From Bacteroidota bacterium (GTDB taxonomy: Bacteria; Bacteroidota; Rhodothermia; Rhodothermales; JANQRZ01): 64,000 bases of DNA. Under the pieces are notes generated by a model, which searched no databases, was not told the DNA's origin, and was given only the letters and a program-made list of their open reading frames with translations. The DNA is taken from positions 19,431-83,430 of the forward strand of contig JBCDKT010000011.1 in NCBI GenBank assembly GCA_038746285.1, in the 5' to 3' direction. The translations under genes were made by a program, and so were the position numbers. This document shows, one piece after another, positions 27,878 through 46,729 of the stretch (positions within the stretch are counted from its first letter, which is position 1; each line of letters opens with the position of its first letter).

Positions 27878-28008
27878 CCCGTGAAGCGTGATGCGTGAGG
27901 GTGCCGCCACTGACGGCTCGAAGCGCTCTCGCGGCTCACGTTTCACACCTCGGCGGGTCCAACGCCGACGGCTATCTCCATTCCTCTCCTCATCCAACCG
28001 CACCTCCC

Positions 28009-28875
28009 ATGGCCAAGAAGAAAGTCACCATCGTCACCAAGAAGAAAAAGAGCAAAGCGGCCGGGGCCGCCGACGCGTCCAGCCCGAAGGCGGGCACCAG
28101 GAAAACGACTGCCAAGAAGGCCGCCCCGAAGAAGTCCGACGGTCTGCTCGGTGTGCTGCCGAGCCTGCCCAGCCTTCCTGACCTGCTCGACTTCCCGGCG
28201 GGCGTCGCCGACACCGCCCGAGAGGTCTGGATGGCGGGCATCGGCGCGCTCTCGACCGTCGAGGAGATGGGGGCCGAGATGTTTCAGTCGCTCGTGCAGA
28301 AGGGCGAGTACTGGGAGCAGGAGAGCCGGAAGAAGCTGACCGCGGCGTCGAAGACCGCCAGCGACGCCGCCCAGGGCGCGAAGGTGGCGGCGGGGAGCCT
28401 GAGCAAGAAGCCCATCGAGTGGACGAGCGCCGCCGAGACCCAGATCCAGCGCGTGGTCGAGGACTCCATCGAAGGCGTTCTGCACCGCCTCAATGTCCCG
28501 ACCCACGACGAGGTGCAGGACCTCATCGGGCGCGTCGCGGCGCTCTCCGGCAAGGTGGACGCGCTCACCCAGCAGCGCGCCGCGGCCGAGCCGAAGCAGC
28601 CGTCCGCGTCGAAGGCCGATAAGAAGACCTCGCCGGAGAGTGCGTCTTCGAAGCGAAGCGCCCCCAGCGTGCCGGTCTACCACGTTGCCCCGCACGACGA
28701 GGGGTGGGCCGTCGAGAAGGAGGGGAGCAGCCGCGCCACGAGCGTGCACGGGACGAAGGCTGAGGCCGTCAAGGCCGGGCGCGAGCGCGCCAAGTCGGGC
28801 CAGACGGGTCGCCTCGTTCTCCACCGCCAGGACGGGACGATCCAGGACACGTTCAGCTACGGCGAGGACGGCTAG
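28009..28875 (+). CDS. Phasin-like (PHA-granule-associated protein family) with Lys-rich histone-like N-tail and C-terminal DUF2188
   Basis: Three parts: the tail MAKKKVTIVTKKKKSKAAG...AKKAAPKK, the phasin core REVWMAGIGALSTVEEMGAEMFQSLVQKGEYWEQESRKKL, and the C-terminal YHVAPHDEGWAVEKEGSSRATSVHGTKAEAVKAGRERAK...LVLHRQDGTIQDTFSYGEDG (DUF2188 pattern). Confidence 0.7.
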   Translation: MAKKKVTIVTKKKKSKAAGAADASSPKAGTRKTTAKKAAPKKSDGLLGVLPSLPSLPDLLDFPAGVADTAREVWMAGIGALSTVEEMGAEMFQSLVQKGEYWEQESRKKLTAASKTASDAAQGAKVAAGSLSKKPIEWTSAAETQIQRVVEDSIEGVLHRLNVPTHDEVQDLIGRVAALSGKVDALTQQRAAAEPKQPSASKADKKTSPESASSKRSAPSVPVYHVAPHDEGWAVEKEGSSRATSVHGTKAEAVKAGRERAKSGQTGRLVLHRQDGTIQDTFSYGEDG

Positions 28876-28973: not shown

Positions 28974-30356
28974 TCACGTCCCAAACTCTGCGGTCAGCGC
29001 GTCGATTTCGTTGTGGAAGGCCGCGACGAGGGCCTCGGGGTCGGGGGCCATCTTGGCGTCGGTGGCGATGCCGAGCATGACGGTGCCGGCGTAGCTCATC
29101 ACGCTCACGCCGAGGCCGATGTCGCCCGCGCGCGGGACCCAGAACATGATTCGGCGGATCTCGTTGCCGTAGAAGTGCAGGCACTCGCGCGGCCCCGGCA
29201 CGTTCGTCACGACAGCTGAGACTTTCGACGAGAGGACCTCGACTACCTGTTCGTGCAGCAGCGCCGGGCCGGCCCCGATCGTCTGCAGGATGCCATAGGC
29301 GACGGCGGGCTCGGCGGAGCTTTTGATGATGTCCATCTGCCGCTTGATCTCCATCAGGCGCTCCCGGGCCCCTGCGATGCCGACCGGGAGCGAGAGGAAG
29401 ACGAGTCCGAAGACGTTGCCGAGGTCGAACGCCCGCTCGTAGGGGCGAAGGTTGACCGGGATTGCCGAGCGGATCTCGACCCCTGCCGTCGGCTCGCCGT
29501 GCCCGGCGAGGTAGCGCCGGAGCGCACCCGTGACGGCCGCCATCAGCACATCGTTCAGCTTGCCGCCCGCGCCGTGCGCAATCGCCTTCACGGCGCCGAG
29601 CGGGAGCGGAACCGACCAGGCGACGCGCTTGACGACGGTCGCCGGAGCCTTGAAGCGCGTGTCCGAGTCCGACGACATGAGCGCGATCTTGCTCGCCGCC
29701 GCTCCCATGCTCATGCCTTGCCGCGCCCACTCCAGCGCTTTGCCCGGACGCTGCACCGCGCCGAGTCCGGTCGTGATGGCACCCGCCGCAGCCCTGCCGA
29801 GCCCGTCGATGGCAGTCCCGGCCCGGCGGAAGAGGCGGCCCGTCAGGCTCTCCCCGGTGCGGTCTCGCCCGTAGGCCGGCGTCGCCCGCGCCGGGTCGAA
29901 CATCTCGTCCGCCATCGCGAGGAGTACGTGGATCAGCGCGATGCCGTCGCCGATGGAGTGGTGCAGCCGGCCGATGAGGGCGCTTCCCCCGTCGAACGAC
30001 TCGACGAGGTGGAACTGCCACGGCGATTTCGAGAAGTCGAGTGGGGTGCTCATCAGCTCGCTCACCAGCTCTTCGAGCGAGGTCTTGCTGTTCGGCTCGG
30101 CGAGGCCCGCCCGGTGGACGTGGGCGTCGATGTCGAAGTGGGGATCGGTCTCCCACATCGCGGTCGGACCTTTGTAGACTACCCGCTGCCGGAAGCGCTC
30201 GAAGATCAGCAGCCGCTCCTCGACGAGTCGCTTCAGGTCCTCCAGCTTCATCGGCTCCTCGAAGCCAATGATGCCGACGATCGTCATCGGGTTGACGGGA
30301 GACTCCATGCGGAGCCAGGCCACGTCGGCGGCGCCGAGTTTCTGCCTGCGTGCCAT
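28974..30356 (-). CDS. Wax ester synthase / diacylglycerol acyltransferase (WS/DGAT)
   Basis: Catalytic HHSIGDG (HHxxxDG), an N-terminal WLRMESPVNPM motif, and 460 aa. The 853-aa ORF 27943..30504 in another minus-strand frame is spurious. Confidence 0.9.
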   Translation of the reverse strand: MARRQKLGAADVAWLRMESPVNPMTIVGIIGFEEPMKLEDLKRLVEERLLIFERFRQRVVYKGPTAMWETDPHFDIDAHVHRAGLAEPNSKTSLEELVSELMSTPLDFSKSPWQFHLVESFDGGSALIGRLHHSIGDGIALIHVLLAMADEMFDPARATPAYGRDRTGESLTGRLFRRAGTAIDGLGRAAAGAITTGLGAVQRPGKALEWARQGMSMGAAASKIALMSSDSDTRFKAPATVVKRVAWSVPLPLGAVKAIAHGAGGKLNDVLMAAVTGALRRYLAGHGEPTAGVEIRSAIPVNLRPYERAFDLGNVFGLVFLSLPVGIAGARERLMEIKRQMDIIKSSAEPAVAYGILQTIGAGPALLHEQVVEVLSSKVSAVVTNVPGPRECLHFYGNEIRRIMFWVPRAGDIGLGVSVMSYAGTVMLGIATDAKMAPDPEALVAAFHNEIDALTAEFGT

Positions 30357-30516
30357 GCGGAAATGGGTGAGGGGGAGAGGGGCCGGGGTGGAATCTAACG
30401 CGCCGGGCGCTGCCGAAGCAGAGACGGTGTGCCACGACGTAGTATTCTGTTATTGCATTGTAAACAATGCGAGGCGTGGAAGCCGCAGCGCAACGTGTAC
30501 GCACGTCAACTGTTAT

Positions 30517-30722
30517 TGTGGATAAGTAGGGCTTGGATTTCAGCCCACCGCTTACTATTTTTGCAGCACCTCATGCCGCCTGAGACGGAGTGTCTGCACG
30601 GCGACACCCCGCAGTCGCGCCACTGGGAAGCCCGACCCTCGCGGTTGGGCTTTTCGGCCTCACGCCGCCGGGCACGCAGACACTGAGGAGTGTGGATAAT
30701 CCTACCGATAAGTTGTGCATAA
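30517..30722 (-). promoter_or_regulatory. Cluster of three same-orientation DnaA boxes
   Basis: Plus strand has TGTGGATAA at 30517-30525 and 30691-30699 (both perfect complements of TTATCCACA). TGTGCATAA at 30714-30722 matches TTATNCACA. Confidence 0.5.
30566..30654 (+). ncRNA. Candidate small transcript or leader (~90 nt)
   Basis: Possible promoter TTGGAT (30533-38)-N17-TATTTT (30556-61). The hairpin AAGCCCGACC-CTCGC-GGTTGGGCTT (30628-30652) runs into TTTT. This is weak evidence: the U-tract is short and I have no homology. Confidence 0.2.
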
Positions 30723-30739
30723 CTAGACCTCGTCGGCGC

Positions 30740-30767
30740 TTGACTTCGCGACTCCTGCGCGTTTAAT
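30740..30767 (+). promoter_or_regulatory. Sigma70-type promoter TTGACT-N16-TTTAAT
   Basis: TTGACT at 30740-45, a 16-nt spacer, then TTTAAT at 30762-67. The predicted TSS is near 30774. Confidence 0.45.
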
Positions 30768-30773
30768 TGGGCT

Positions 30774-31501
30774 CAGTGCCTTCGGGCACGCGCCGCCCCT
30801 GCGAAGCTCGCTTCGGGCGCGGCGGCTGCCTTCGGAGTTCGCTCCGGGCAGTGACGTTCCTTGACGCGACTGAAGTTCTCCAGGCTGCATGAGGTCGCCG
30901 GTATGGTTCCGGCGAGGACGCGGTCTCTGCACGACGCCCAGCGTGTCCCGCCTTCGCGGCGAGGCTACCCCTCGGGGTAAGCAGGCAGACGCAGAGCACC
31001 AGGTAAGCCCAACGCTCCCGAGTAGACCGGTCCGGCCGGGCAAAAAGGAACGGTGGCAGAGGCCTCGCCCGCGCAGCAGGTCCGCAACGCGACTCCGGTC
31101 GTGTGTGACTCCGGTCACAGCGCGGGCCGCGCGCAGCCATCCCGGAGAAAATGTGTCTGGGCGGCTGCCGCATGCGCACTGTGCCTCAGTACAGTGCACG
31201 CGTACGGCAACATCACGATGCGATTCTATCGTACTGCGTTGTGCGCCGCAGCACGCGGACCACGTTTGCCGGGATGCTCTGCATCCCACTAAACAGGTGG
31301 CCCGTGCAAGAGCCAGCCTGTTCTTTGTACGGTGCCGGCTTGGGTGGAGGTCTGACGACCAGAACCCCAGGCCAGTCCGTTCCGGCGCAGGTCGGTTTCC
31401 GGCCGCGCGCCGGAGGAAGCCTTCGGGCTGACGAAAGAAGGGCTGTCGCGTCAGGAACTACTTTTAGCGGGTCGGTGCCTCGGGTGCCGACCCGCTTTTT
31501 T
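30774..31501 (+). ncRNA. Candidate large (~730 nt) structured non-coding RNA, unclassified
   Basis: There is no credible ORF in any frame. Plus-strand hairpins: GTGCC-UUCG-GGCAC (30776-89), CGAAG-CUCG-CUUCG (30802-15), CUGCC..CGGAG-UUCG-CUCCG..GGCAG (30826-51), UCGCCGG-N7-CCGGCGA (30895-915), UACCC-CUCG-GGGUA (30966-79), CGAC-UCCG-GUCG and GUGAC-UCCG-GUCAC (31090-118), GCACUGU-N8-ACAGUGC (31176-97), GGGAUGC-UCU-GCAUCCC (31271-87) and AGCC-UUCG-GGCU (31418-29). A strong terminator closes the unit. Confidence 0.5.
31466..31501 (+). terminator. Rho-independent terminator
   Basis: AGCGGGTCGG...CCGACCCGCT forms a 10-bp GC-rich stem followed by TTTTTT (31496-31501). The orientation is plus-strand specific. 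Confidence 0.8.
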
Positions 31502-31560
31502 GTGGGCACGCGCGCCCCGCCCGCGCCGCGCCCGCCCCGCCCGGGCGCGTATCTTTCGGC

Positions 31561-32409
31561 ATGGACGAAGCCCCCGCTCCGCAGCCGCCGCCTCAGACGC
31601 GCACGCCCGGCCCGATGCTGCGCCAGCGGCGGCGCGTGATCCGGGGTGTCCCGCCGGTAGCCGTGCCGAGCTTCTTCACGCTGATGAACCTGCTCAGCGG
31701 GTTCTTCTCGCTCATCCAGACCTCGGCCGGCAACCTGGAAGCGGCGGCGTGGCTCGTCGTCCTCGCCGCGTTCTTCGACCTGCTCGACGGGCTCATGGCC
31801 CGCCTCGCGCGCGTCTCCTCGGACTTCGGCCTCGAGCTCGACTCGCTCAGCGACGTGGTCTCGTTCGGCGTGGCCCCGTCGTTCCTGCTCTACGAGTTCG
31901 GCCTCGACCAGCTCGGGCCGCTGTGGGGGGCCATTCTGGCGAGCCTGCCGGCGCTCTTCGGAGCCGTCCGCCTCGCCCGGTTCAACACCCTCGCCGACCC
32001 CGAGGAGAAGCAGGGCTACTTCACCGGGCTCCCGATCCCGGCGCAGGCCGGGACGGTCGTCGTGTTCATCCTCACCTTCGCCGACTCGTCGTGGTTCGAC
32101 GTGCTGGAGCGCCGGCAGATCTCGGTCCTCATCACGCTCGTGCTCGCGCTCTCGGCGCTCATGGTCTCGCCCGTCCGCTTCCCGGCGCTGCCCCAGCCCA
32201 ACCGGTCCAACCTTCGGGCATACCCGTACCGGTTCTTGGCGTTTGGCGTCGGCCTGGTGCTGACGCTCGTCGGCGAGGTCGTATTCCGTGCCGGCGAGGT
32301 CGGCCTTCTCATCTCGGCCGTCGTGTATCTTGCCCTCGGGATCGGCGGCGCGATTCGCTGGGCGATCAGCGCCGCTTCCGAGCCCGACGACGCTTCTCCT
32401 GACCGCTGA
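31561..32409 (+). CDS. pssA: CDP-diacylglycerol--serine O-phosphatidyltransferase
   Basis: FFTLMNLLSGFFSL...AAFFDLLDGLMARL...FGLELDSLSDVVSFGVAP is the CDP-alcohol phosphatidyltransferase motif (D-G-x2-A-R...D-x3-D). The exact start is uncertain. Confidence 0.85.
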   Translation: MDEAPAPQPPPQTRTPGPMLRQRRRVIRGVPPVAVPSFFTLMNLLSGFFSLIQTSAGNLEAAAWLVVLAAFFDLLDGLMARLARVSSDFGLELDSLSDVVSFGVAPSFLLYEFGLDQLGPLWGAILASLPALFGAVRLARFNTLADPEEKQGYFTGLPIPAQAGTVVVFILTFADSSWFDVLERRQISVLITLVLALSALMVSPVRFPALPQPNRSNLRAYPYRFLAFGVGLVLTLVGEVVFRAGEVGLLISAVVYLALGIGGAIRWAISAASEPDDASPDR

Positions 32410-36104: not shown

Positions 36105-36246
36105 ACAGGTTGCGTCTCAACCGCCCCGGGCTGAGGGCTGGCGGGTAGTACGAAGCGCGGGATACGCCGAGGGCTAGCCGAGAACGCCCGCGCCTTGTGT
36201 TAACCTGCAGCGGCGGTTGGGACGTCTGTTGCGACGGTGCATTCCC

Positions 36247-37245
36247 CTAACTGTAACCAGGAATGCGACGGTAGGTATTTGCCCGTTCGATGATTGTGAT
36301 GGAAGGCCAAAGATCCTGATCCGCAGGGAGGTGTATGCGCGAATCAAGCGATGCTGTCAGGTCTGCAAGGCCGTCAGAAAGACCGAGCGTTCGTAGTCGG
36401 TCGGCTTTCTCGTTGTTCAGACGAACGAAACGGTCGGGGTCCAGAAAAATCAGCCCATGATCGAAGGCTCGGTGCATTGTAGGCGACAGAGTGATACCGT
36501 TTGTGGTCACGTCTGTCGAACCCTCTACGGCCACCGGGAGAATATGCGCCGCGTCTACTAACCGGAGCTGTGCTCGCGTGACAGCACAACGGTGGCCGTA
36601 GGCGTCCAATACTTTGCGACGGAAGTTTGCAGCGCGACTGAGACGGCTTACTTCCGTTACCACGCGCTTCCTCTCAGGTGGCAGCGTGTTGGCTTCCGCT
36701 TCAACGTCCTCCGATGCCGCTGCGCGTTGGACTAGAGGCAGCACTTCGGCGCTCCCGGTGTGGAGGAGTAGCGCGTTCAGGACGTATTCCAAGAACTGGT
36801 CGGGGCGAATGCCTATCGCAACTTCCTGATTGTCCTTCGTTGTGAAATCCAACCCGTTCTGCAGAGCAGCCTGCAAAGCGCTGAGGTCGATCTGAACCGA
36901 TGACGAGCCGGGCGTGAACGTTTGGTGCTGCGCTATGTCGAAGCCGCCGAAGATTCCGAGGCTGGGTTCGTATCCCACGAGGACTGTGTACCCGCTTAGA
37001 TTGAGCGCCAAAGGCGAGTTCACCGTCGTCATTTGGATGCGATACTCACCGGGTAGGCTCGCGCGCCCGCCGTGGGTGAGCGTCCAGATGTAAACCCACA
37101 ACGTGAAACTCTGGTCGAGGTACTGGACGCCGAACTTCCGCGGATGCGCTCGGACGCTATCCGAAAGATAGACGCCTGATCCGCCCGATTGCTGGACGGC
37201 GTCAAGCACCGCATCTACAAGCTGGGTAGGGGAGGCGGCTGGCAT
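36247..37245 (-). CDS. HNH-type restriction endonuclease (type II R subunit candidate)
   Basis: The C-terminal half has FRRKVLDAYGHRCAVT....LVDAAHILP......D...NGITLSPTMHRAFDHGLI, the HNH_2-type motif seen in restriction enzymes. It sits 9 nt downstream of the methyltransferase on the same strand and has lower GC. Confidence 0.7.
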   Translation of the reverse strand: MPAASPTQLVDAVLDAVQQSGGSGVYLSDSVRAHPRKFGVQYLDQSFTLWVYIWTLTHGGRASLPGEYRIQMTTVNSPLALNLSGYTVLVGYEPSLGIFGGFDIAQHQTFTPGSSSVQIDLSALQAALQNGLDFTTKDNQEVAIGIRPDQFLEYVLNALLLHTGSAEVLPLVQRAAASEDVEAEANTLPPERKRVVTEVSRLSRAANFRRKVLDAYGHRCAVTRAQLRLVDAAHILPVAVEGSTDVTTNGITLSPTMHRAFDHGLIFLDPDRFVRLNNEKADRLRTLGLSDGLADLTASLDSRIHLPADQDLWPSITIIERANTYRRIPGYS

Positions 37246-37254
37246 AGATCGACT

Positions 37255-38346
37255 CTACTTTCGCTTGTCAGTTTTCTTGGGGCGCTTTCTGCCTCCGTCT
37301 TGGGGAAGCGGTGCCTCACCTTCGACTCCATTCCAGAGTGCAGCCGGATGCGAGATGCTGTATGACGGAACCGTTCGGCCTGCTCTGCTCTCGACTCCAC
37401 CCTCAAATCGTAGTTTCGCACCGTCCACGTACTCTGCCACCTCGTCCACGCAGACCCATCTACGGCTAAGCCGCTCACACACCTCCCCCGTCACGCACGA
37501 ACCAGCAAACGGATCAAGGACTAGATCGCCTGTGTCTGTCAGCATCCGAACGAAGAGCTCGGGCACGTCGGCAGGGAAGCGGGCTGGGTGTGGGCTAATT
37601 CCGTGCTCTTCGCACGAACGGAGGTAGGAGGAGTTGCTTTCCGTATTAGCGACGGCAATCAGATTTGGGGGAATGGCTGCCCCGTTGTTGCGGGAAAACT
37701 TGTCGCTAATGTCGTGTCCACTCGGGCGGAGTTTTGCTTTGTAGCCGTTCTTCAGCAGTCCCTTCATCGACTTGCTGTAAGGCGTCAGAACCCGACGGTT
37801 GCTTGCTTTAGGCCACGGCGTTTTAGACAACCACCAGACGCAATTGACGGCGTCCTTGACTCGGATGCGGCGAATGTTGACCCACTCGGCGGGCGTCGGC
37901 AGCTTCGAGGGGTTCCACCAGTAGAACTCTTGGGCGAGGTGGAAGCCGAACTGCTTGCACAGCATGATGAGCAGCTCGAAGTGATAGAGCGAGCGCGTAG
38001 GCTGGCGCGGTATCCAAGCACCACCGATGTCGATGACGAGCGAGCCATCGTCGGCCAGCACCCGGTGGAACTGCTCGGCAAACGGCTTGAACCAGTCTAG
38101 ATAGTCTTCCGCGTCGGCGTTGCCGTAGTCCTTCTTCCTAACGAGGCCGAAGGGCGGCGAGGTCATTATCAGGTTGACTTCGCCTTCCGACAGCGACGGA
38201 AGCACCGCGAGAGAGTCAGCCTGGAAGATGCGACCGAGATCGGTTTCGTACGCTGGCCGGGGGAATAAAGACTTCTGCTTACTCACGGTGCCTCTGGGTT
38301 CATCGAACTCTCTGAACGGGGTCGCCGGAAGATACGGGACTGCCAC
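37255..38346 (-). CDS. Beta-class DNA methyltransferase (N4-cytosine or N6-adenine; SPPF motif IV before motif I)
   Basis: NLIMTSPPFGLVRKKDY (motif IV) and later VLDPFAGSCVTGEVCERL (motif I, FxGxG). This order and the TSPPF motif resemble M.PvuII-type m4C enzymes. Confidence 0.85.
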   Translation of the reverse strand: MAVPYLPATPFREFDEPRGTVSKQKSLFPRPAYETDLGRIFQADSLAVLPSLSEGEVNLIMTSPPFGLVRKKDYGNADAEDYLDWFKPFAEQFHRVLADDGSLVIDIGGAWIPRQPTRSLYHFELLIMLCKQFGFHLAQEFYWWNPSKLPTPAEWVNIRRIRVKDAVNCVWWLSKTPWPKASNRRVLTPYSKSMKGLLKNGYKAKLRPSGHDISDKFSRNNGAAIPPNLIAVANTESNSSYLRSCEEHGISPHPARFPADVPELFVRMLTDTGDLVLDPFAGSCVTGEVCERLSRRWVCVDEVAEYVDGAKLRFEGGVESRAGRTVPSYSISHPAALWNGVEGEAPLPQDGGRKRPKKTDKRK

Positions 38347-38405
38347 GGGCCTGCGACAGCCACAGAGTAGGCTCCGTGCGGCCAGCGTTGCGTTTCGTCA
38401 GCGAG

Positions 38406-39338
38406 TTAGGCACGACCGACGGAACGCGCCAGGTCTTCTGCGACCCCGGAGCCTTTTGTACCGCTGAGGTCGAGCCAGCGGTAGGTGGCGCGACGGCGGA
38501 ACCAGGTGAGCTGGCGCTTGGCATAGCGCCGCGTGTTCTGCTTCAGGCGTCGGACCATCTCGTCGTACCCGACCTCGCCTCGGAGGTAGGCCAGCGGCTC
38601 GCGGTAGCCGATCGTCCGAAGCGGGTTGAGGCCCGGCGAGACACCGGCATCCAGCAGGCGACGGTTCTCGTCTAGCAGCCCCGCCTCCAGCATCTGATCT
38701 ACGCGCCGGTTGATGCGCTCGTACAACTCGGCGCGTGGCCGCGTAAGGACGACCGGCCCAAACGCGAACGGGGGCGGCGTTCGGTGGGCGTGGTAGTACG
38801 ACAGCGGGCGACCGGTGTCGCGCAGCACTTCGAGCGCACGGACGACGCGCTGCGTCTTGGTCGCGTCCATCGTCGCGGCGCTCGTCGGGTCGAGACGCTC
38901 CAGTTCGCGGTAGAGCACGTCGCCGCCCTCGTCGCGCAGCCGTGCCATCAGGACATCGCGCGTGGCGGGCGTCGTCTCGGGAATGTCGGCCAGCCCGTGC
39001 ATGAGAGCTTCGAGGTAGAGTGTCGAGCCGCCAACGACAACCGGGACCCGGCCGCGGCGAAGGATATCTCTGATGCGAGCGCTCGCAGCCTCGGCGAATC
39101 GCCCCGCCGAAAACGGCTCGTCCAGGTCCAGTTCGTCGATGAAGTGGTGCGGGACGCGGGCGAGCTCTTCGGGCGAAGGCTTCGCCGTGCCAATCGTGAG
39201 ACTCCGGTAGACCTGCCGACTGTCCGCCGAGACGATCTCGCCGCCAAGCCGCTCGGCCAGGGTGAGACTGAGCGCTGTCTTGCCTACGGCTGTCGGACCG
39301 ATGAGCGCGAGAATCGGTCTGGCCGAACCGCCCGCCAC
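38406..39338 (-). CDS. miaA: tRNA dimethylallyltransferase
   Basis: ILALIGPTAVGKTALSLTLAERLGGEIVSADSRQVYRSLTIGTAKPS...HHFID. The start is probably the GTG at 39338, just after the moeB stop. The ORF-track N-terminal extension overlaps moeB. Confidence 0.88.
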   Translation of the reverse strand: MAGGSARPILALIGPTAVGKTALSLTLAERLGGEIVSADSRQVYRSLTIGTAKPSPEELARVPHHFIDELDLDEPFSAGRFAEAASARIRDILRRGRVPVVVGGSTLYLEALMHGLADIPETTPATRDVLMARLRDEGGDVLYRELERLDPTSAATMDATKTQRVVRALEVLRDTGRPLSYYHAHRTPPPFAFGPVVLTRPRAELYERINRRVDQMLEAGLLDENRRLLDAGVSPGLNPLRTIGYREPLAYLRGEVGYDEMVRRLKQNTRRYAKRQLTWFRRRATYRWLDLSGTKGSGVAEDLARSVGRA

Positions 39339-39340
39339 GG

Positions 39341-40492
39341 TCAGTACTTCGGCATCGAGGGGTCGATCTCGTCGCTCCACGCGAGCACGCCGCCCTTGAG
39401 GTTGACCGCGCCCTCGAACCCTGCCTCGCGGAGCATCTGCACCGCCTTCGCCGAGCGTCCCCCGGAGCGGCAATGGACTACAAAGCTCTCTTCCCGGTGT
39501 TCCTCAATCTCCTCCAGCCGGTTCGGTAGCTCGTCGAGCGGGATCAGCGTCCCGTCAAGGTTGGCAATGGCGAACTCGTCGGGACGGCGCACGTCGAGGA
39601 TGAACGGGCGCTCGCCCCGGTCGATCTGGTCTTTCAGGTCTCGGACCGTGACTTCGGGGACAGCGGGGGAGGTGCTCATGGGCGAAGTGGCTGAGGAGGC
39701 GCAGAACGCCTCGTAGTCGATGAGATGGGTGATCGTGGGGTGGGTACCGCAGGCAGGGCAGTCCGGGTCCTTGGGGATAGCGAGGGAGCGAAACTGCATG
39801 GTCAAGGCGTCGACGAGCAGCAGGCGACCGATGAGCGGTTCGCCGATGCCGAGGATCAGCTTCAGCACCTCCGTCGCCTGGATCGTCCCGATGAGGCCGG
39901 GCAGCACGCCGAGCACCCCGCCTTCTGCGCAGTCCGGGACGAGGTCCGGTGGGGGAGGGCGGTCGTAGAGACACCGGTAGCAGGGCCCGTCATCGGTGCA
40001 AAATACCGTGACCTGCCCTTCGAAGCGGAAGACGGAGCCGTAGACGTTCGGCGTGCCGGTGAGCACGCACGCGTCGCTGACGAGGTAGCGCGTGGCGAAG
40101 TTATCACTCCCGTCGGCCACCACATCGTAGCCGCCGATGAGGTCGAGCGCGTTGTCGCTCGTCAGCCGCACCGGATGAGGAACGAGGTCGACGTGCGGGT
40201 TCAGATCGCGCAGTCGTTCCATCGCCGCTTCGAGCTTGGGACGGTCGGCGTCGCGGCTCCCGTAGAGCACCTGACGCTGAAGGTTCGTCTCGTCTACGCG
40301 GTCGAACTCTACGATCCCGATCCGACCGACACCTGCGGCGACAAGGTAGAGGGCGAGCGGCGACCCGAGCCCGCCCGCGCCGATGAGGAGCACGGAGGCC
40401 TGCTTGAGTCGTTCTTGTCCGGCGAGACCGACCGTGGGCAGCGTCAGGTGCCGCGCGTAGCGCCGGGTTTCGTCGGGTGAAAGCGCTGTCAC
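39341..40492 (-). CDS. moeB: Molybdopterin-synthase adenylyltransferase MoeB/ThiF with C-terminal rhodanese domain (MoeZ-type)
   Basis: RYARHLTLPTVGLAGQERL...VLLIGAGGLGSP, the CxxC pairs (CYRCLY, CPACG), and a rhodanese domain with active-site HCRSGGRS. The GTG start overlaps the stop of the upstream cyclase gene. Confidence 0.9.
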   Translation of the reverse strand: MTALSPDETRRYARHLTLPTVGLAGQERLKQASVLLIGAGGLGSPLALYLVAAGVGRIGIVEFDRVDETNLQRQVLYGSRDADRPKLEAAMERLRDLNPHVDLVPHPVRLTSDNALDLIGGYDVVADGSDNFATRYLVSDACVLTGTPNVYGSVFRFEGQVTVFCTDDGPCYRCLYDRPPPPDLVPDCAEGGVLGVLPGLIGTIQATEVLKLILGIGEPLIGRLLLVDALTMQFRSLAIPKDPDCPACGTHPTITHLIDYEAFCASSATSPMSTSPAVPEVTVRDLKDQIDRGERPFILDVRRPDEFAIANLDGTLIPLDELPNRLEEIEEHREESFVVHCRSGGRSAKAVQMLREAGFEGAVNLKGGVLAWSDEIDPSMPKY

Positions 40493-41250
40493 GTTTGATC
40501 CGTTATTGCAAGCAGCTTTTTGGGAAACCTGGAGGGTAAGTCTCCTGGTTGGGAGGCGATGAACATCAGCAAGCCCTGCACCACCAAGATGTTGGTGACG
40601 AGGAAGAAGACTGCTTCCTCAATGGGCAGGCCCAGCGGGTCGAAGTCCAAACTGTACGTGTTCGAGATGTCCCAGATGCCATTGCTGATGGCGAAGCGGT
40701 CGGCGATCCACAGGTACACGGTAGGCACTGCAATGCCGACGATCCACGCGCGGCGGTGTCGCCAGAAGACGGGTGCCGACAACCAGGCCATACCGGCGAG
40801 GACCGGGCCAGCCCACGCCAGGATAAGACCCATGTATAACGTGCGAGTACCGAACAGCATAGCCACGCCTGCAAGGCTCACGGCGGACCAGAATGCAACC
40901 AGTAGAGGGCGAATGCTACTGGAACTCTCGGCATGGGAATCCGAGATCTGAGCATGCACAATCATGAGCCATAATCCAGTCAGTACAGGCTGTAACAGAA
41001 AGAACATATACTCCTCAATGGGCACGTACCCAATCGTTGCCAGCACCCGGTCTTCACCGTAGTACCACACGCCTCGGTACACGAGGTAGTTGTCCCACGC
41101 TGTCGTGTAGATGAAGGCGATCAGCGCAACCAGCGCGATCCAGCCCCACGCACGCTTCGCACCGATGCCTCCCATCGGTTTCCGCTGGAGCACGATCAGT
41201 GCCGAGATGGGTGGGAGGATGAACGCGGCGTGGAACGCGAGGTAGGTCAA
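40489..41250 (-). CDS. Lycopene cyclase domain protein (fused CrtYc/CrtYd-type)
   Basis: Two repeats each carry the P(I/L)EE motif ([13 protein letters not shown] and [13 protein letters not shown]), there are seven TM-like segments, and it is adjacent to a CrtI-family gene. Confidence 0.75.
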
Positions 41251-42788
41251 TAGATTTTTTTCTCGAGGTCCTTCATGATGACGCGCGCTGCGTTGCGCCC
41301 CGAAGCTCCCATGATACCGCCGCCGGGGTGCGTGCTCGCTCCGGTGAGGTACAGCCCGTCGACGTGGCTGCGATAGCCGCTCATGGTGGGGAAGGGCCGC
41401 ATCATGAACATCTGGTCAAGGCTCATCTCCAGGTGCATCACGTTGCCCCTGAAGAGACCTAACTCGCGCTCCAGCCAGAGAGGATGCTGGAAAAGTTGGC
41501 CCACTACCTTACCGCGGGTCTCGGGAGCGTACTGCTCGAAGGTGTCCAGGATGCGGTCGGCTACAGCGTCCTCGATGTCGTCCCAGGACTGGCCGTTTGC
41601 GAGTTCATACGGGTAGTACTGTGCCCAGAGCCAAAGCACCTCGCCACCAGGCGGGGCAAGCGAATCGTCGACCGCGCTGAACGTCATGGCTACGATCGGC
41701 GGGTCGTGGGCGGGCTCACCACGCAGGTAGTCGCCGTAGGCACTCGTAACCTGCTGCCGGTCCCGGCAGAGGAGCTGGAGCCCAATGCGTGCTTCGTCAC
41801 CGGGATGCGCCGCGTACTGCACCGGCTCCGAGAGCGCCAGTCGCAAAATGGCCCCGAACCCGTTTCCCACGCGAGGCGCCGCTGTGGAAGACGTGCGGTA
41901 GCGGGCTGGCAGAAGACGTTCGACTGTTTCTAGTATGTGGGTACCGGAGAGGACGCACCTGGCGGTGTACACGTCGCTACCTACACGCACGCCGGTAGCT
42001 CTGTCTTTTTCGACGAGTATATCTCCGACAGGTGCCGAGGTAAACACGGCCCCGCCGTGCGCTTCAATGCACATGCGCAGCGCCTGTGTTAGCATGCCGG
42101 ACCCGCCTCGGGGACGGGCCGCGCCGCCTTCGTGGTAGAGCGGATGCCAGAGCAGAAAGGGCGCGGTGATGGGCTCTGTGGGTGGCGGTCCAGACTGCGC
42201 CGCCATCCACACGAGCGGCGTCTTCACCTTCTCCTCGTTGAAATACTCGTCGACTACCTCGCCGTAGGGCTTCATGATGAGCCCCAGCGCCCGCTGCCAG
42301 TCCATCTGGGCTGAGGGACCGAACACCATCTTCCTCCCGAGCTCGAACGGCCCCGGCGTCGAGAGGAAGATGTCCTTGATCGTTTTGGAGAACGGGTGCC
42401 ACTCCTGGATGAAACGCCGGTAGGCCTCGCCTTCGCCCGGGAACTGAGACTCGATGTGATCAGCCGTCCGGTCTGCACTTCGGTAGAAAAAAAGACTGTC
42501 TCCGTCGCCAGAGGAAGAGTAAAAGAGCGGATCTAACTCTATGTAATCTAGGCCATGTTCGTACAGGTCTAGTTCGTCAATAATAGGGGTCAAGCGAATG
42601 AGTATGTGCGCGCTACCACCGAGGTCGAACTGATATCCGGGTATAATCTCTTTGGTAGATACAGCACCCCCTACAATGTCACGACGTTCAAAGACACCGA
42701 CGCGGTATCCTGCCTTGGCGAGATAGGCCGCCGACACGAGCGCGTTGTGGCCGGCTCCGACGACAGCAACGTCAAAATCATAGTGCAT
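41247..42788 (-). CDS. Phytoene desaturase (CrtI) family FAD-dependent oxidoreductase
   Basis: [42 protein letters not shown] is a Rossmann GxGxxG/FAD motif. 514 aa. I chose ATG 42788 inside ORF 41247..42860. Confidence 0.8.
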
Positions 42789-42816
42789 GAGATTTAAGTC
42801 TGTTATTGCAAGATGA

Positions 42817-43785
42817 TTAAATCTTGATGTAGTCAGCAGCGCTGTCCTTGAGCTTGTCACGCTGGTGCACGTAGGTCATCGTCGTCTCGAGACGCTTGTG
42901 CCTTGCGTGGGTCTGCACCTGCTGCAGAGACGCACCCGACTCGATGGCGAGTGTGCATCCGGTATGACGCAGTGTGTGGGCTCCGATCTTCGCGTCGAGG
43001 CCAGCGCGGCGCGCAGTCCGCCTCACTACCTCGTAGATAGCAGAGGGGGACATTCTGTTTCCACGGCTCGAATTGCGGCTCAGCGAGCGCCAGAGTGCGC
43101 CTCCCTCGATACCGTAGTATTGCTTCATAGTTTCAATCGACTCGACGAGGAAGGCCGGTACCTTGACGTACTCGTTCGCGCCGCCTTTCGTGCGAGGAAG
43201 GTCGAGGATCCAGTAAGGCCCGGAGCTTCGAACGTGCGACACGTCCATCGCGGCGGCCTCGGAGCGGCGCAGTGTGCAGTGCAGCAAGACGTTCACGAGG
43301 GTCCAGTCCCGCACGGCAGCTCCGCCGTTCAGATTGGTAGCCTCGACAAGGAGCCGTGCCTGCTGCTTCGTTAAAACTGTTATTGGAAGATTGCTTTTTG
43401 AGTTTCGGTCTACCCGTCTAATCACACTTCGGTCTGCAGGATTGGTCTTGACCAGATCGAGCGCTATGAGCCAGCTGTAGAACCCCCTAATAGCGGATAT
43501 TTTCCTGCGTACCGTGCTCGACTGGAGTCCAGAAGACTGGAGCTCCCGGACATAGGCGTTGAGATGAACAAAATTCAACTGCTGCGCCATACGGAGCGTG
43601 ACAAACTCTGATCTGAAAAGCCGCAGGAGGTCACTTCTGTAGGCCCGCCTTGTCTGTTCACGGTCGAAGCGCAGCAAGTAGACAGGTAGCAGGTCAGCGT
43701 CGAGCGCCTGTGCGTCCGGGACGGTTATATTCTGGCCTGAGGCCGTAACGGTCGCTGGCAGCCTTGCGTGATCGGAGGTGTCCAT
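42817..43785 (-). CDS. Tyrosine recombinase/integrase (Xer-like, with SAM-like N-domain)
   Basis: Catalytic signature: LRRSEAAAM (Arg I), [11 protein letters not shown] (HxxR) and [12 protein letters not shown] (His...Tyr). The N-terminus has [13 protein letters not shown]...IRGFYSWL. Confidence 0.85.
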
Positions 43786-43874
43786 CGGTACTGGGGTCTC
43801 GCTTGAACGCTATCTGGTACCCTTGATAATAAGGGTTATCACAGGTATAAGTCAACCCAACGCGCTACCCGCCT

Positions 43875-44678
43875 ATGCCGAACCCCAACGAGCCCGGTTC
43901 GCCCCGTTTCCACCCGGTTGTCGTCGGTGCGCTCTATCCAAGCGTCGAGCGTGGTCTGGCGGCCGACCTCGCCGCGGCGCGCGCGCTGGGAGGATGTGGC
44001 TATCCTGTCTGCACGTCGCTGGTTATGGCCGGTCACAACGTAGTGACCGATGCGACCGACGTGCCGGAGGACACGATTCGGGCTCAGCTAGAGCATGTCA
44101 TGCAGACGGTCCAACCCGCCGGCGTCAAGATCGGAGTGCTGTCGTCCCATCCGGCAGCTGAGGCCGTCTTTCGGTTTGCAGATAGCTTCGACGGGCCGGT
44201 CGTGCTCGACATCCAGCTCAGCGGGCCGAGTGGTGAGACGGTGCTCACGCGTCGGGGTATCGGTGTGCTCATGGACCATCTCGCCGTCTCAGACCTCGTT
44301 GTTGTAGGCCATGCCGATGCCGAGTTGCTCAGCGAGGGTGAGATCAACTCCCTCGACGATGCCCAGGTTGCGGCTCAGCGCCTGGCTCACCGAGGGGCGC
44401 GTGCCGTGGTAATCAAGTGCGGCACCCTACCGGCTCGTCACTTCGAAGCAAACGGAGACGCGCCGGATGACACTGTGTTCAACACCGACTTGTACTTTGA
44501 CGGCGAAGAGTTCGCGCTCTTTGAGGCACCGCACGCCCGTGGCGTAAACCAAGACGGCACTTCCAGCCTGTTTTCCCTCGCAGCGCTTCAGGGGCTTGCG
44601 GGTCGGCAGGTCCAGCAAGAAGCGCTACAGTATGCCAAACGCCTGGTAACAGATAGCCTACATAAAATCAAAAAGTAA
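43875..44678 (+). CDS. ThiD/PfkB-like kinase-fold protein, divergent
   Basis: Overall similarity to hydroxymethylpyrimidine kinase (VKIGVLSS..., AVVIKCG). The N-terminal GSDSGGGAG-type motif is replaced by ALYPSVERGLA. Confidence 0.45.
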   Translation: MPNPNEPGSPRFHPVVVGALYPSVERGLAADLAAARALGGCGYPVCTSLVMAGHNVVTDATDVPEDTIRAQLEHVMQTVQPAGVKIGVLSSHPAAEAVFRFADSFDGPVVLDIQLSGPSGETVLTRRGIGVLMDHLAVSDLVVVGHADAELLSEGEINSLDDAQVAAQRLAHRGARAVVIKCGTLPARHFEANGDAPDDTVFNTDLYFDGEEFALFEAPHARGVNQDGTSSLFSLAALQGLAGRQVQQEALQYAKRLVTDSLHKIKK

Positions 44679-44711
44679 CTTCATACAATAACAGCTATAT
44701 CTCATCACGCC

Positions 44712-45755
44712 ATGTCGTCTACGAAACGGACCATCTACGAAGTCGCGGCCGAAGCCGGTGTAGCCATCTCAACGGTTTCCCGCGTACTCAACGGCTCCAG
44801 CGAGGTAGCCGACGCGACCCGCGAGCGCGTCCAGGCTGCTATCGACAAGCTTCAGTTCCGTCCGCAGCGTACAGCCCGGACGCTTGCCCAGCAGCAGACA
44901 GACTCGCTTGCCGTGGCGATGCCGTCCTTCACCTCGCTCTTTTACGTCGAGCTTCTCAAAGGCGTCAAGGACGAGTTGCGAGACCACGACATCGACCTGC
45001 TGATGTGTAACCTCGGCTCGGGCGCGCCCTACCAGACGCTGGAGCGGTTTCTGGACCGCGGTGCCGTTGACGCACTGATGCTGACCTCGCTTCCGGTCGA
45101 TGCAAAGCTGCGAGACGAACTAGCGAGGCTGCACGCTCCTGTCGTGCTCGTCGGGACGCAGTCGAAGGCGTTCGACTCGTTTTACTGGGACGAAGCTGCC
45201 GGCATCGAGCGCTCCGTCGTGCACCTCGCGCAGCAGGAGCATCGCCGGATCGGACTTATCGCCGCCCATCCCGGAAGCCAGAATGCGGACGAGCGCCTGG
45301 CAGGCTACCGGCGCGGCCTCGAGGCCGCCGACTTAGCCTACGACCCCACCCTCGTTGTGATGGGCGAGACGACCAAGCACGCCGGGTTCAGCGAGGAGGC
45401 CGGCGTGGAGGCCATGACCAAGCTGCTTGCTCTAGACACCCCGGTCACGGCTGTGTGCGCTTCCTCTGACGTGCAAGCCATCGGGGCTTGGTCCGCGCTG
45501 CGCGGCGCCGGGCTGCGTGTGCCGGAAGACGTTGCGCTCGTCGGGTTCAACAACCTCAAGCTCTGCCACTACCTCGGGCTGAGTTCCGTGGACCTTCGGA
45601 TGCACGACGTGGGATGCCGCGCCACGCGGCTCTTACTTAACCGGATGAGAGCGCCCAGCCAGCCGGTTACCGAAGCGATGACACCCGAGCTTATCGTGCG
45701 CCGCAGCAGCGTTGCCACACCCCAGCCTGTCCACACAGCTTCTTCCCACTCATGA
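44712..45755 (+). CDS. LacI family transcriptional regulator
   Basis: HTH TIYEVAAEAGVAISTVSRVLNGS plus a periplasmic-binding-protein-like core. Confidence 0.9.
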   Translation: MSSTKRTIYEVAAEAGVAISTVSRVLNGSSEVADATRERVQAAIDKLQFRPQRTARTLAQQQTDSLAVAMPSFTSLFYVELLKGVKDELRDHDIDLLMCNLGSGAPYQTLERFLDRGAVDALMLTSLPVDAKLRDELARLHAPVVLVGTQSKAFDSFYWDEAAGIERSVVHLAQQEHRRIGLIAAHPGSQNADERLAGYRRGLEAADLAYDPTLVVMGETTKHAGFSEEAGVEAMTKLLALDTPVTAVCASSDVQAIGAWSALRGAGLRVPEDVALVGFNNLKLCHYLGLSSVDLRMHDVGCRATRLLLNRMRAPSQPVTEAMTPELIVRRSSVATPQPVHTASSHS

Positions 45756-46729
45756 CGCCCTCGCCCGCCCTCGACGACGTGCTGCACCGCCAGCTCGGCC
45801 ACTGCCTTGTCGAGACTCACTTCGACGATCTGGGCCAGCGGTACGGGGGCAAGGTGCGCGACACCTACCGCACACCAGAGGGCCGGCTGATTCTGGTCAC
45901 GACGGACCGCATCTCGGCCTTCGATCACATCCTGCCACAGCCGATTCCGTTTAAAGGACAGGTTCTAAACCAACTCGCAGCGTACTTCTTCGGCAAGACC
46001 GAAGACATCGTTCCGAACCATGTCGTCTCGGTTCCCGACCCCAACGTGACGGTTGCGCTCGCCTGCGAGCCGATCCCAGTCGAGTTTGTCGTGCGAGGCT
46101 ACCTGGCCGGCCACGCATGGCGAGTCTACCGGGACGGCGGGCGCATACTGTGCGGGGTCCCGCTTCCCGATGGCCTCCGTCAGAACAGCCGGCTTCCGGA
46201 GCCCATCCTGACGCCTGCTACGAAGGCCGCCGAGGGACACGACGAGGACATCTCACGCGAGGGCGTCCTCGGGCGCGGCTTACTCAGCGCCGGACGGTTC
46301 GACGAAATCGCCGGCGTGGCGAAGCAGCTCTTCGCACGGGGCACAGAACTCGCAGCCGAGCGTGGACTGATCCTGGTAGACACGAAGTACGAGTTCGGGC
46401 TAGACCGCCAGGGCGATGTCGTGCTGATCGACGAAGTGCACACGCCGGACTCGTCGCGCTACTTCTACGCTGCAGGCTACGACGAGCGGCTCGCAGCCGA
46501 CGAGCCGCAGCGCCAGCTCTCCAAAGAGTTCGTGCGGGAGTGGCTGATGGACCACGGCTTTCAAGGCCAGGCGGGCCAGGCAATGCCTGACCTCCCCGAC
46601 GACTTTCGGGTGCTAGCTGCGAAACGCTACATCGAACTCTTCGAGACCGTGACCGGCCACACTTTCGAACCGGACGCGCATCTAAGCCCGACGTCGCGTA
46701 TTCATAGTGCCCTTTCTTCGTTTGCTTGA
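45752..46729 (+). CDS. purC: Phosphoribosylaminoimidazole-succinocarboxamide synthase (long form)
   Basis: GKVRDTYRT..GRLILVTTDRISAFD, LILVDTKYEFG and IDEVHTPDSSRYF. It overlaps the lacI stop by 4 nt. Confidence 0.9.
   Translation: MTPSPALDDVLHRQLGHCLVETHFDDLGQRYGGKVRDTYRTPEGRLILVTTDRISAFDHILPQPIPFKGQVLNQLAAYFFGKTEDIVPNHVVSVPDPNVTVALACEPIPVEFVVRGYLAGHAWRVYRDGGRILCGVPLPDGLRQNSRLPEPILTPATKAAEGHDEDISREGVLGRGLLSAGRFDEIAGVAKQLFARGTELAAERGLILVDTKYEFGLDRQGDVVLIDEVHTPDSSRYFYAAGYDERLAADEPQRQLSKEFVREWLMDHGFQGQAGQAMPDLPDDFRVLAAKRYIELFETVTGHTFEPDAHLSPTSRIHSALSSFA

Follow-up and report, generated by a model that had tools for sequence, protein, structure and literature searches.

Noncoding RNAs (ncRNAs) of more than ~400 nt with covarying folds are few in bacteria: the ribosomal RNAs, RNase P RNA, tmRNA, group I and group II introns, OLE, GOLLD, ROOL and a handful more. 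Most such large RNAs have proved to be ribozymes, ribonucleoprotein cores or self-assembling structures. Here we describe a candidate for a new class of this kind from a Rhodothermales member of the Bacteroidota, found in a 64,000-nt stretch of contig JBCDKT010000011.1 (assembly GCA_038746285.1) that we refer to as the window. The RNA lies in a 1.2 kb gap between two genes, WS/DGAT and pssA, whose orientation is divergent around the gap. An initial annotation had proposed an unclassified large structured ncRNA between the two genes, and every feature that it described is found where it was placed. Rfam searches, conservation and covariation in relatives, and checks for a pseudogene all support that proposal. 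Our analysis goes further in that we recognize a predicted locus of two RNA genes, a long-range helix that closes the large RNA, and a conserved position upstream of pssA; the conserved block also begins earlier, at ~30510, upstream of the unit first described. We think it likely that the locus is a stand-alone gene for a large structured ncRNA of an undescribed family, which would act in trans and whose core would be gated by a companion small RNA. The coordinates of all features are collected in Table 1.

The large RNA has, at the level of sequence, what an independent ncRNA gene should have: a promoter and a terminator of its own, both of them conserved. The sigma70-like promoter reported at 30740-67 is present and is kept in relatives, where TTGAC[T/A]-N17-T[A/T]nn[T/A]T occupies the equivalent position in 13 of 15 members and in 8/8 of a second subgroup (21/23 together). 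A generic promoter scanner made no call at 30740-68, since it requires an A as the second base of the -10. The start of the large RNA would be at about 30774-76. At the other end, the intrinsic terminator is as the annotation had it, and its stem is preserved in relatives via compensatory changes. The plus strand of 30768-31503 folds with a minimum free energy of -385.4 kcal/mol versus -338 +/- 5.5 kcal/mol for dinucleotide shuffles (z = -8.6), and the minus strand of the same segment reaches z = -5.5. Two of the tetraloop hairpins reported earlier, at 30776-89 and 31418-29, are real UUCG hairpins, as is one at 30833-46. The loop placed at about 30829-36 did not hold up: within the nested helix at 30825-52 the UUCG loop is at 30838-41, and the CUUCGG at 30830-35 is part of the stem.

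The gap contains no credible protein-coding gene, in agreement with what had been noted. Its open reading frames (ORFs), examined over 30357-31560, are low-complexity, Arg/Ser/Cys-rich and spread over several frames. In a Pfam search of six of them, five had no match of any kind and the sixth, 30429-30683, had only a sub-threshold match to DUF4485 (E 0.052). The sole conserved AUG, at 30889, opens ORFs of 7-180 aa in relatives and is ACG in the subgroup that we call R below, and indels that are not a multiple of three are frequent throughout the alignments of relatives. With no conserved reading frame and no credible Pfam match, we rejected both a protein-coding gene and a pseudogene.

The region also matches no known RNA. 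At the gathering threshold, the sole match of the whole window to Rfam 15, whose 4227 covariance models include OLE, GOLLD, ROOL, HEARO, raiA, 6S, SRP and the group I/II introns, is a tRNA-Leu elsewhere. Even at E <= 10, a search of 30300-31620 returned terminator look-alikes only, among the best of them ncS54 at 19.5 bits versus a threshold of 43, and ten homologous loci searched at E <= 5 gave no relevant match. A literature search found no prior description of this RNA. As far as these models can tell, then, the large RNA belongs to no described RNA family.

One might still ask whether this is a divergent or rearranged housekeeping RNA (RNase P RNA, tmRNA, 6S or SRP) that the covariance models miss, since in its closing helix the two ends of the RNA come together as in P1 of RNase P RNA. 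We regard this as very improbable; the annotation, too, had looked for features of RNase P RNA and tmRNA and found none. RNaseP_bact_a/b (RF00010/RF00011), tmRNA, 6S and SRP gave no match, either to the region (E <= 10) or to ten diverse members of the family (E <= 5); ARAGORN, which also handles permuted tmRNA, found no tmRNA in the window; and the large RNA has no tRNA-like 3' end. The sequence GGAGAAAAUGUGUCUGGGC (31145-63), and GGAUGAAAGUACGGUCUG in subgroup B, superficially resemble the RNase P CR-I motif, GAGGAAAGUCCGGGC, and GACGACCAGAACCCC likewise resembles ACAGAACCC. RNase P RNA of type A has CR-I GAGGAAAGUCC and ACAGAA forming a long-range P4, and this combination is absent here. 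The partner of the GUCUGG segment is CCAGGC, which lies upstream of it, and not a downstream P4 strand. A P4-like pairing of GUCUGGG with CCCAGGC is possible in the window but is lost in the closest relative, L001 (L-numbers denote homologous loci and candidates for them). The RNase P-like look of GAGAAAAUGUGUCUGGGC and CCAGAACCCC was rejected on the same grounds, namely that the pairing topology differs and that the P4-like pairing is not conserved.

To find relatives we used pssA as an anchor, with one genome per species, and then BLASTN and nhmmer. Homologues are present in 23 further loci of Rhodothermales, in Rubricoccaceae, Rubrivirga, Rubricoccus marinus and metagenome-assembled genomes. 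The locus is single-copy in the window, with no repeats elsewhere. The gap upstream of pssA is conserved over its full length in L001, L004, L005 and L006 (74% identity over 968 nt for L001), and its ends are conserved in L024, L010 and L014. The 5' block, CGUUCCUUGACGCGACUG-(loop)-CAGGC(U/A)GCAUGAGG, is invariant in all eight pssA-anchored sequences, and a metagenome scan with this block yielded seven more members, L028-L034, in which the invariance of the core holds by construction because the core was in the search pattern. Another metagenome match, L027, was discarded as chance, being AT-rich and without other family features. A scan of IMG/VR with a 16-mer gave 8 matches, all chance, inside phage ORFs and without the rest of the motif. 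Re-inspection of pssA loci that had looked negative revealed a diverged subgroup R, comprising Rubrivirga and relatives (L008, L009, L012, L017-L020 and L025), with the same promoter, 5' GUUCCUUGA, GCUGCAYGAGG motif and terminator; this form is carried by the Rubrivirga isolates IMCC43871 and IMCC45206. Family members are 478-932 nt long, and the cultured Rubricoccus marinus has a short form of about 460-470 nt. In R. marinus SG-29 (GCA_002257665.1, contig MQWB01000001.1, locus L043) this large RNA is placed at about 2366-2838, and the predicted small RNA described below at about 2139-2222. We distinguish four subgroups, A, B, C and R. Subgroup B did not align reliably in MAFFT, and our statements across groups therefore cover helices P1, H3, H4 and H18 and the core motif.

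Covariation was measured in two of the subgroups. The consensus of subgroup A, which includes the window (6 sequences), has 171 pairs in 25 helices with 93.1% of cells paired, and that of subgroup R (8 sequences) has 194 pairs in 30 helices with 94.6% of cells paired, percentages that are inflated because the structures were predicted on the scored alignments. Double changes are seen at 42 of the 171 pairs in A, compared with 19.7 +/- 3.1 in shuffled alignments (0/500 reach the observed number) and 5-15 in slid controls. The corresponding figures for R are 43/194, 18.4 +/- 2.9 (again 0/500) and 8-11, and the slid controls are 3-8 times lower than the observed counts in A and R. G-U cells outnumber A-C cells by 109 to 28 in A and by 110 to 27 in R, an excess indicating that the plus strand is the RNA strand, which agrees with the promoter and terminator. 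As judged from these alignments, 30775-31503 is a conserved plus-strand structured RNA gene of a new family.

The predicted fold is closed by P1, which ends 7 nt before the terminator. Compensation in this helix takes GUUCC/GGAAC to GCUCC/GGAGU in L030 and UUGAC/GUCAA to UUGAG/CUCA(G)AG in L019 and L020. Inside P1 is a three-way junction with a long arm, made up of H3, H4 and several sub-domains, and a short arm, H18. This P1/H3/H18 base junction is common to three of the four subgroups (A, C and R) with differing sequences; the H3 pairing, for example, reads GUUCU/AGAGC in subgroup A, CUCUC/GAGAG in subgroup C and GUGCGUC/GACGCAC in subgroup R. Between the start and P1 the leader differs among members, from 80 nt of hairpins in the window to almost nothing in L004 and L033. 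In two loci (L029, 161-480; L034, 2790-3065) we observed a lineage-specific expansion in which the leader consists of at least three tandem ~100-nt repeats of CUUCGG-capped hairpins.

The most conserved part of the RNA is its core, which supplies the 5' strands of P1, H3 (30875-79) and H4 (30880-90) together with a GAGG motif; all subgroups share the nearly invariant 5' strand GUUCCUUGA...GCUGCAYGAGG. The 5' strands of these helices are almost invariant while their 3' partner strands drift and compensate, suggesting that the particular sequence of the core matters for more than base pairing. The core is probably the active or recognition site of the large RNA. GCAUGAGG can fold locally into a hairpin with the adjacent CCUC(R)UGC in subgroups B and C. 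The same GAGG hairpin can be drawn by eye in subgroup R as an alternative fold, and the consensus pairs the region elsewhere. Subgroup A, including the window, has no cis partner for GCAUGAGG.

The second predicted gene lies upstream, on the same strand, and encodes a small RNA that we call 'anti-core'. Its promoter takes the form TTGnnn-N17/18-TAnnTT and is found at a fixed distance from the ACCUCAUGC start in 12 loci and in Rubricoccus marinus (13 loci), so placed that transcription would begin right at ACCUCAUGC. The 5' end of the small RNA, ACCUCAUGCCGCCUG (30568-82), can pair with core 30881-95 at 14 of 15 positions (inverted repeat I3, 15 nt, 93%), and a second block, CAGUCGCGCCA (30612-22), is complementary to core 30862-72 (I7, 11 nt, 91%); a variable hairpin separates the two. 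Viewed as DNA, the unit is a reverse complement of the 40-nt core in which the 8-nt H3 strand is replaced by a hairpin of ~30 nt. Nowhere else in the 64-kb window is the core 15-mer matched with one mismatch or fewer. By nhmmer, the unit is present in 14 loci counting the window, that is in subgroups A, B and C and in L024, and in none of the subgroup R loci. As its ATG frame is not conserved, the unit is noncoding. Changes in the core are accompanied by changes in the small RNA: in L010, L014 and R. marinus a U-to-A change in the core is matched by a C-to-U in the small RNA, and in L028 a core GGA is matched by a small-RNA U and the duplex is extended to GCAUCCUCAUGC/GCAUGAGGAUGC, a perfect 12-bp block. 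We also considered a seed pairing of the small RNA with the start of pssA (CAUGCCG/CGGCAUG in the window, CAUGCUG/CAGCAUG in L001) and rejected it, as it fails in L004-L006.

The small RNA ends in a hairpin of 14-15 bp (30624-57) that holds a UUUU run, and compensatory changes are seen at 8 of its 14 consensus pairs. This hairpin bears on an alternative, in which there is one long transcript of ~30568-31503, or two isoforms from two promoters, with the small RNA as a 5' domain. The arrangement would be a cis switch: the core would pair either with the upstream domain or with its own H4 and P1 3' strands in mutually exclusive folds. In the hairpin the UUUU run is base-paired to an A tract upstream of it, a free U tract is absent after most copies, and the pairing covaries (GAAAAG/CUUUUC is replaced by GGGGGA/UCCUCC in L014 and by GAAAGG/CCUUUC in L031 and L034), all of which would suit an internal domain. 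The spacer between the two units is also partly conserved. However, genuine terminators often have an A tract ahead of the stem, the conserved spacer has the look of a protein operator (TGTGGA repeats) and not of RNA helices, and a complete large-RNA -35/-10 lies between the units in every member, including the eight Rubrivirga-type loci that have no upstream unit at all. We consider a long transcript possible but unlikely, and treat the two RNAs as separate genes.

In every locus with readable downstream DNA, the RNA is followed on its own strand by (psd-)pssA-purS, and this includes R. marinus and the loci retrieved through the RNA itself (L031-L034). The upstream gene varies (WS/DGAT, Ddl or others). 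The fixed position hints at a link between the RNA and membrane phospholipid synthesis. In most relatives (L031-L034, L011, L013, L003) psd, with a start of the form M-x-LAREG..., lies between the RNA and pssA. We noted only a short psd-like start between the RNA terminator and pssA in L004-L006 and L024, and none in the window and L001, so psd appears to have been lost or moved in the window/L001 lineage.

The same synteny would be expected if the RNA were a giant cis leader, sensory or attenuating, of psd-pssA-purS, with the terminator controlling read-through. It is on the right strand and directly upstream in every readable case, including the loci found through the RNA, and pssA of the window has only a -10-like TATCTT with no -35. 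We nevertheless regard a cis leader as distinctly improbable. A riboswitch or attenuator is expected to have a same-strand 5' position, which is seen here and is not decisive by itself, and a conserved antiterminator, which is not seen: in ten members, the best partners for either terminator arm lie at unrelated positions. The terminator is very stable, with its 14-bp stem and T6. Between the RNA and the next gene the spacer varies in length, being ~57 nt long in the window and in L001 and ~100-300 nt long elsewhere, and only its -10-like motif is conserved. The family's size of 480-930 nt is, to our knowledge, far above that of any riboswitch or attenuator. The raiA-type RNAs show that a fixed synteny need not imply a cis role (PMC10861870).

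The -10-like motif is itself conserved, CGTATCTTTC(G/A)GCATGG being identical in the window and L001, and a -10 of the TAnnTT type is also found at the small-RNA promoters. This suggests that TATCTT could serve as a promoter and that the pssA mRNA would be near-leaderless.

Both RNA promoters are preceded by DnaA-box-like repeats. At the large-RNA promoter, TGTGGA-type repeats are found 18-50 nt upstream of the -35 in 22 of the 22 promoters compared, and the boxes at 30691-30722 are probably an operator for a DNA-binding protein. In the Rubrivirga subgroup the repeats degenerate to TGTGGACGG/TGTGGAGAT. We observed in L008 (2905-2975), L012 (3000-3065) and other members of subgroup R three TGTGGA-like repeats at ~10-11 bp spacing (aTGTGGAcgg-yGTGGAga-TGTGsGCAACTTAAC), which appear to resemble a response-regulator operator more than DnaA boxes. 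At the upstream box, (C/T)GTTATTG is kept in most loci; the perfect TGTGGATAA is kept in the window, L001 and L005, lies just upstream of the aligned stretch in L006, and is TGTCGATAA in L004. Two of the three exact matches to TTATCCACA in the 64-kb window are in this locus, or three of six with one mismatch allowed. The other perfect 9-mer lies at 2479-2487, near the left end of the window, inside or beside a long ORF.

With three DnaA-box-like 9-mers within 210 bp, a lower-GC stretch at 30400-30560 and divergent genes on either side, a DNA-level element such as a replication origin or DnaA-binding region might be proposed, or else a decayed gene or mobile element. We find this scarcely credible, the least probable of the readings discussed here. 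Compensatory pair changes and an excess of G-U are signals at the RNA level, the boxes keep a fixed spacing to each of the two promoters, as operators do, and degenerate to TGTGGACGG in the Rubrivirga group, and no GC-skew switch occurs within the window. There is no credible Pfam match, no frame is conserved, and the locus is present in a single copy in the window. An origin of replication (oriC) would be expected to combine a cluster of DnaA boxes and an AT-rich unwinding element with a GC-skew switch. Three DnaA-box-like sites are there, at promoter-proximal operator positions, and the skew within the 64-kb window has no switch; an oriC at this locus seems unlikely.

We return to the reading that we prefer, a trans-acting large RNA with a gated core. 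The large RNA would act as a scaffold, a ribonucleoprotein or a ribozyme. The 5' end of the small RNA and its second block would pair with CAGGCUGCAUGAGGU and CGCGACUG of the core. The small RNA mimics the 3' strands of H4 and P1, as well as the cis CCUCAUGC strand in B and C, and could therefore displace these partner strands of the large RNA, so that gating would be by strand invasion. A protein binding the TGTGGA (DnaA-box-like) repeats, possibly DnaA, may set large-RNA transcription. More speculatively, and in our view rather unlikely in this full form, the locus might be a two-RNA device unlike any yet described, in which a ribozyme or scaffold core is switched by an inverted-copy small RNA, with both genes under DnaA-box-type control and physically tied to psd-pssA, coupling replication or the cell cycle to lipid synthesis.

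Several points weigh against this view. The consensus structures come from the same alignments that were used to count pairs, and the 5' core belonged to the metagenome search pattern, leaving only the 8 pssA-anchored genomes as an unbiased set. The pairing of the small RNA with the core is backed by just two or three independent compensatory events. The U run of the small RNA sits in a hairpin stem, in most copies with no U tract after it, so that the small RNA may fail to terminate there and may instead form the 5' domain of a longer isoform. Gating cannot be indispensable to the family, since the small RNA is missing from the Rubrivirga subgroup. A cis role would account just as well for the conserved orientation upstream of psd-pssA. 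The start of transcription, the 3' end and the abundance of the large RNA are all predictions, and nothing in our analysis points to a specific activity or protein partner.

Table 1. Predicted features of the RNA locus and its flanking genes, in window coordinates.
Feature	Position	Strand	Details
WS/DGAT gene	start 30356	-	Pfam WS_DGAT_cat/WS_DGAT_C
Upstream box CTGTTATTG overlapping perfect DnaA-box TGTGGATAA (30517-25)	30510..30525	+	~10 nt upstream of small-RNA -35
Putative small-RNA promoter	30533..30561	+	-35 TTGGAT 30533-38; 17-nt spacer; -10 TATTTT 30556-61
Predicted companion small RNA ('anti-core')	30568..30657, ~90 nt	+	inverted repeats I3 and I7; nhmmer; 3' hairpin covariation
Two DnaA-box-like boxes	30691..30722	+	perfect TGTGGATAA 30691-99, TGTGCATAA 30714-22; 18-50 nt upstream of large-RNA -35
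Putative large-RNA promoter	30740..30768	+	-35 TTGACT 30740-45; -10 TTTAAT/TTAATT 30762-68; spacer 16 or 17 nt
Predicted large structured ncRNA	30775..31503, ~729 nt	+	z = -8.6; 171 consensus pairs in 25 helices; no Rfam family
5' leader hairpins	30776..30852	+	GUGCC-UUCG-GGCAC (30776-89) conserved; 30790-30852 lineage-specific, deleted in L004 and L033
P1 5' strand GUUCCUUGACGCGAC	30856..30870	+	pairs with 31445-58; 14 bp, 98.8% of cells paired; inverted repeat I4
Invariant core UGACGCGACUG-AAGUUCUC-CAGGCUGCAUGAGGU	30862..30895	+	invariant in 8 genomes found via pssA
H4 3' strand AUGUGUCUGG	31151..31160	+	pairs with 30880-90; equivalent CAGGC/GYCUG helix in subgroup C
H3 3' strand AGAGC (31309-13), then H18 5' strand AGCCU (31315-19)	31309..31319	+	base three-way junction
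H18 3' strand GGGCU (31440-44), then P1 3' strand GUCGCGUCAGGAAC (31445-58)	31440..31458	+	consensus fold, inverted repeats
Intrinsic terminator	31466..31502	+	stem 31466-31496, 14 pairs (10 G-C), 3-nt loop, then T6
TATCTT -10-like motif before pssA	31550..31563	+	5 nt before ATG 31561, without recognisable -35
pssA (CDP-alcohol phosphatidyltransferase)	start 31561	+	Pfam CDP-OH_P_transf

The identity of the PurS gene, like those of the two genes that border the gap, is backed by Pfam. Upstream of WS/DGAT, at 27895-28875, is a gene for a phasin domain fused to DUF2188, which together with WS/DGAT makes up a storage-lipid or polyhydroxyalkanoate neighbourhood beside the phospholipid genes. CTGTTATTG recurs at 30447-55, where it leads into a perfect palindrome, GCATTGTAAACAATGC (30455-70), within the lower-GC stretch upstream of the divergent WS/DGAT, and this may be an operator for the WS/DGAT gene. 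Farther away, a segment of ~10 kb at 36200-46700 has a G+C content of 58-66% versus ~69% elsewhere in the window, with ordinary-sized ORFs of lower G+C at third codon positions (GC3), and may be a horizontally acquired gene cluster.

If our reading is right, the little-studied Rhodothermales have an RNA class of their own, with natural size variants from ~460 nt (Rubricoccus marinus) to ~930 nt. A small RNA antisense to the invariant core would offer a direct experimental way to learn which part of the large RNA is important, and cultured hosts exist in Rubricoccus marinus and the Rubrivirga isolates. Given its fixed place at psd-pssA and its DnaA-box-like operators, the locus may tie membrane lipids to the cell cycle.

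Among known systems, the predicted large RNA is closest in kind to the large structured RNAs OLE, GOLLD, ROOL, raiA and smtA ('Soda Lake' RNA). It shares with them a size of several hundred nucleotides, many covarying helices, highly conserved nucleotides that are unpaired or at junctions, a narrow phylogenetic range, an independent promoter and terminator, and a function that cannot be deduced from sequence. It differs from them in having no match to their covariance models and in its host clade, the Rhodothermales. GOLLD and ROOL are associated with phages or tRNAs, whereas this RNA is not, the viral scan having given chance matches only. We know of no dedicated antisense-copy partner small RNA for the OLE, GOLLD, ROOL, raiA or smtA classes. 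A fixed gene neighbourhood like the one seen here is described for raiA and smtA RNAs (PMC11109978; PMC10861870).

RNase P RNA of type A is alike in size, in a terminal helix joining 5' and 3' ends, and in a purine-rich GA(A/G)AA...GUC(U/C)GG motif, but the large RNA fails its covariance model and has neither the P4 pseudoknot topology nor the CR-I to CR-V sequences. For the small RNA, the nearest parallel is RNA I of ColE1, an antisense RNA of ~100 nt that redirects the folding of RNA II: both are short RNAs from the same locus as a long RNA, complementary to its 5' part, and the small RNA here could likewise redirect folding by competing with internal helices. Unlike RNA I, it is not an overlapping antisense transcript but an inverted duplicate encoded on the same strand, 300 nt upstream; its complementarity is bipartite (13-15 nt plus 8-11 nt) and incomplete, and the locus is chromosomal and syntenic. 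Sponge and decoy pairs such as GlmY/GlmZ and SroC-GcvB are also alike in that one RNA controls another ncRNA by mimicry or pairing. Their targets, however, are small Hfq-type sRNAs, while the target here would be the core of a 500-900-nt RNA, and the regulator would mimic the target's own internal strands.

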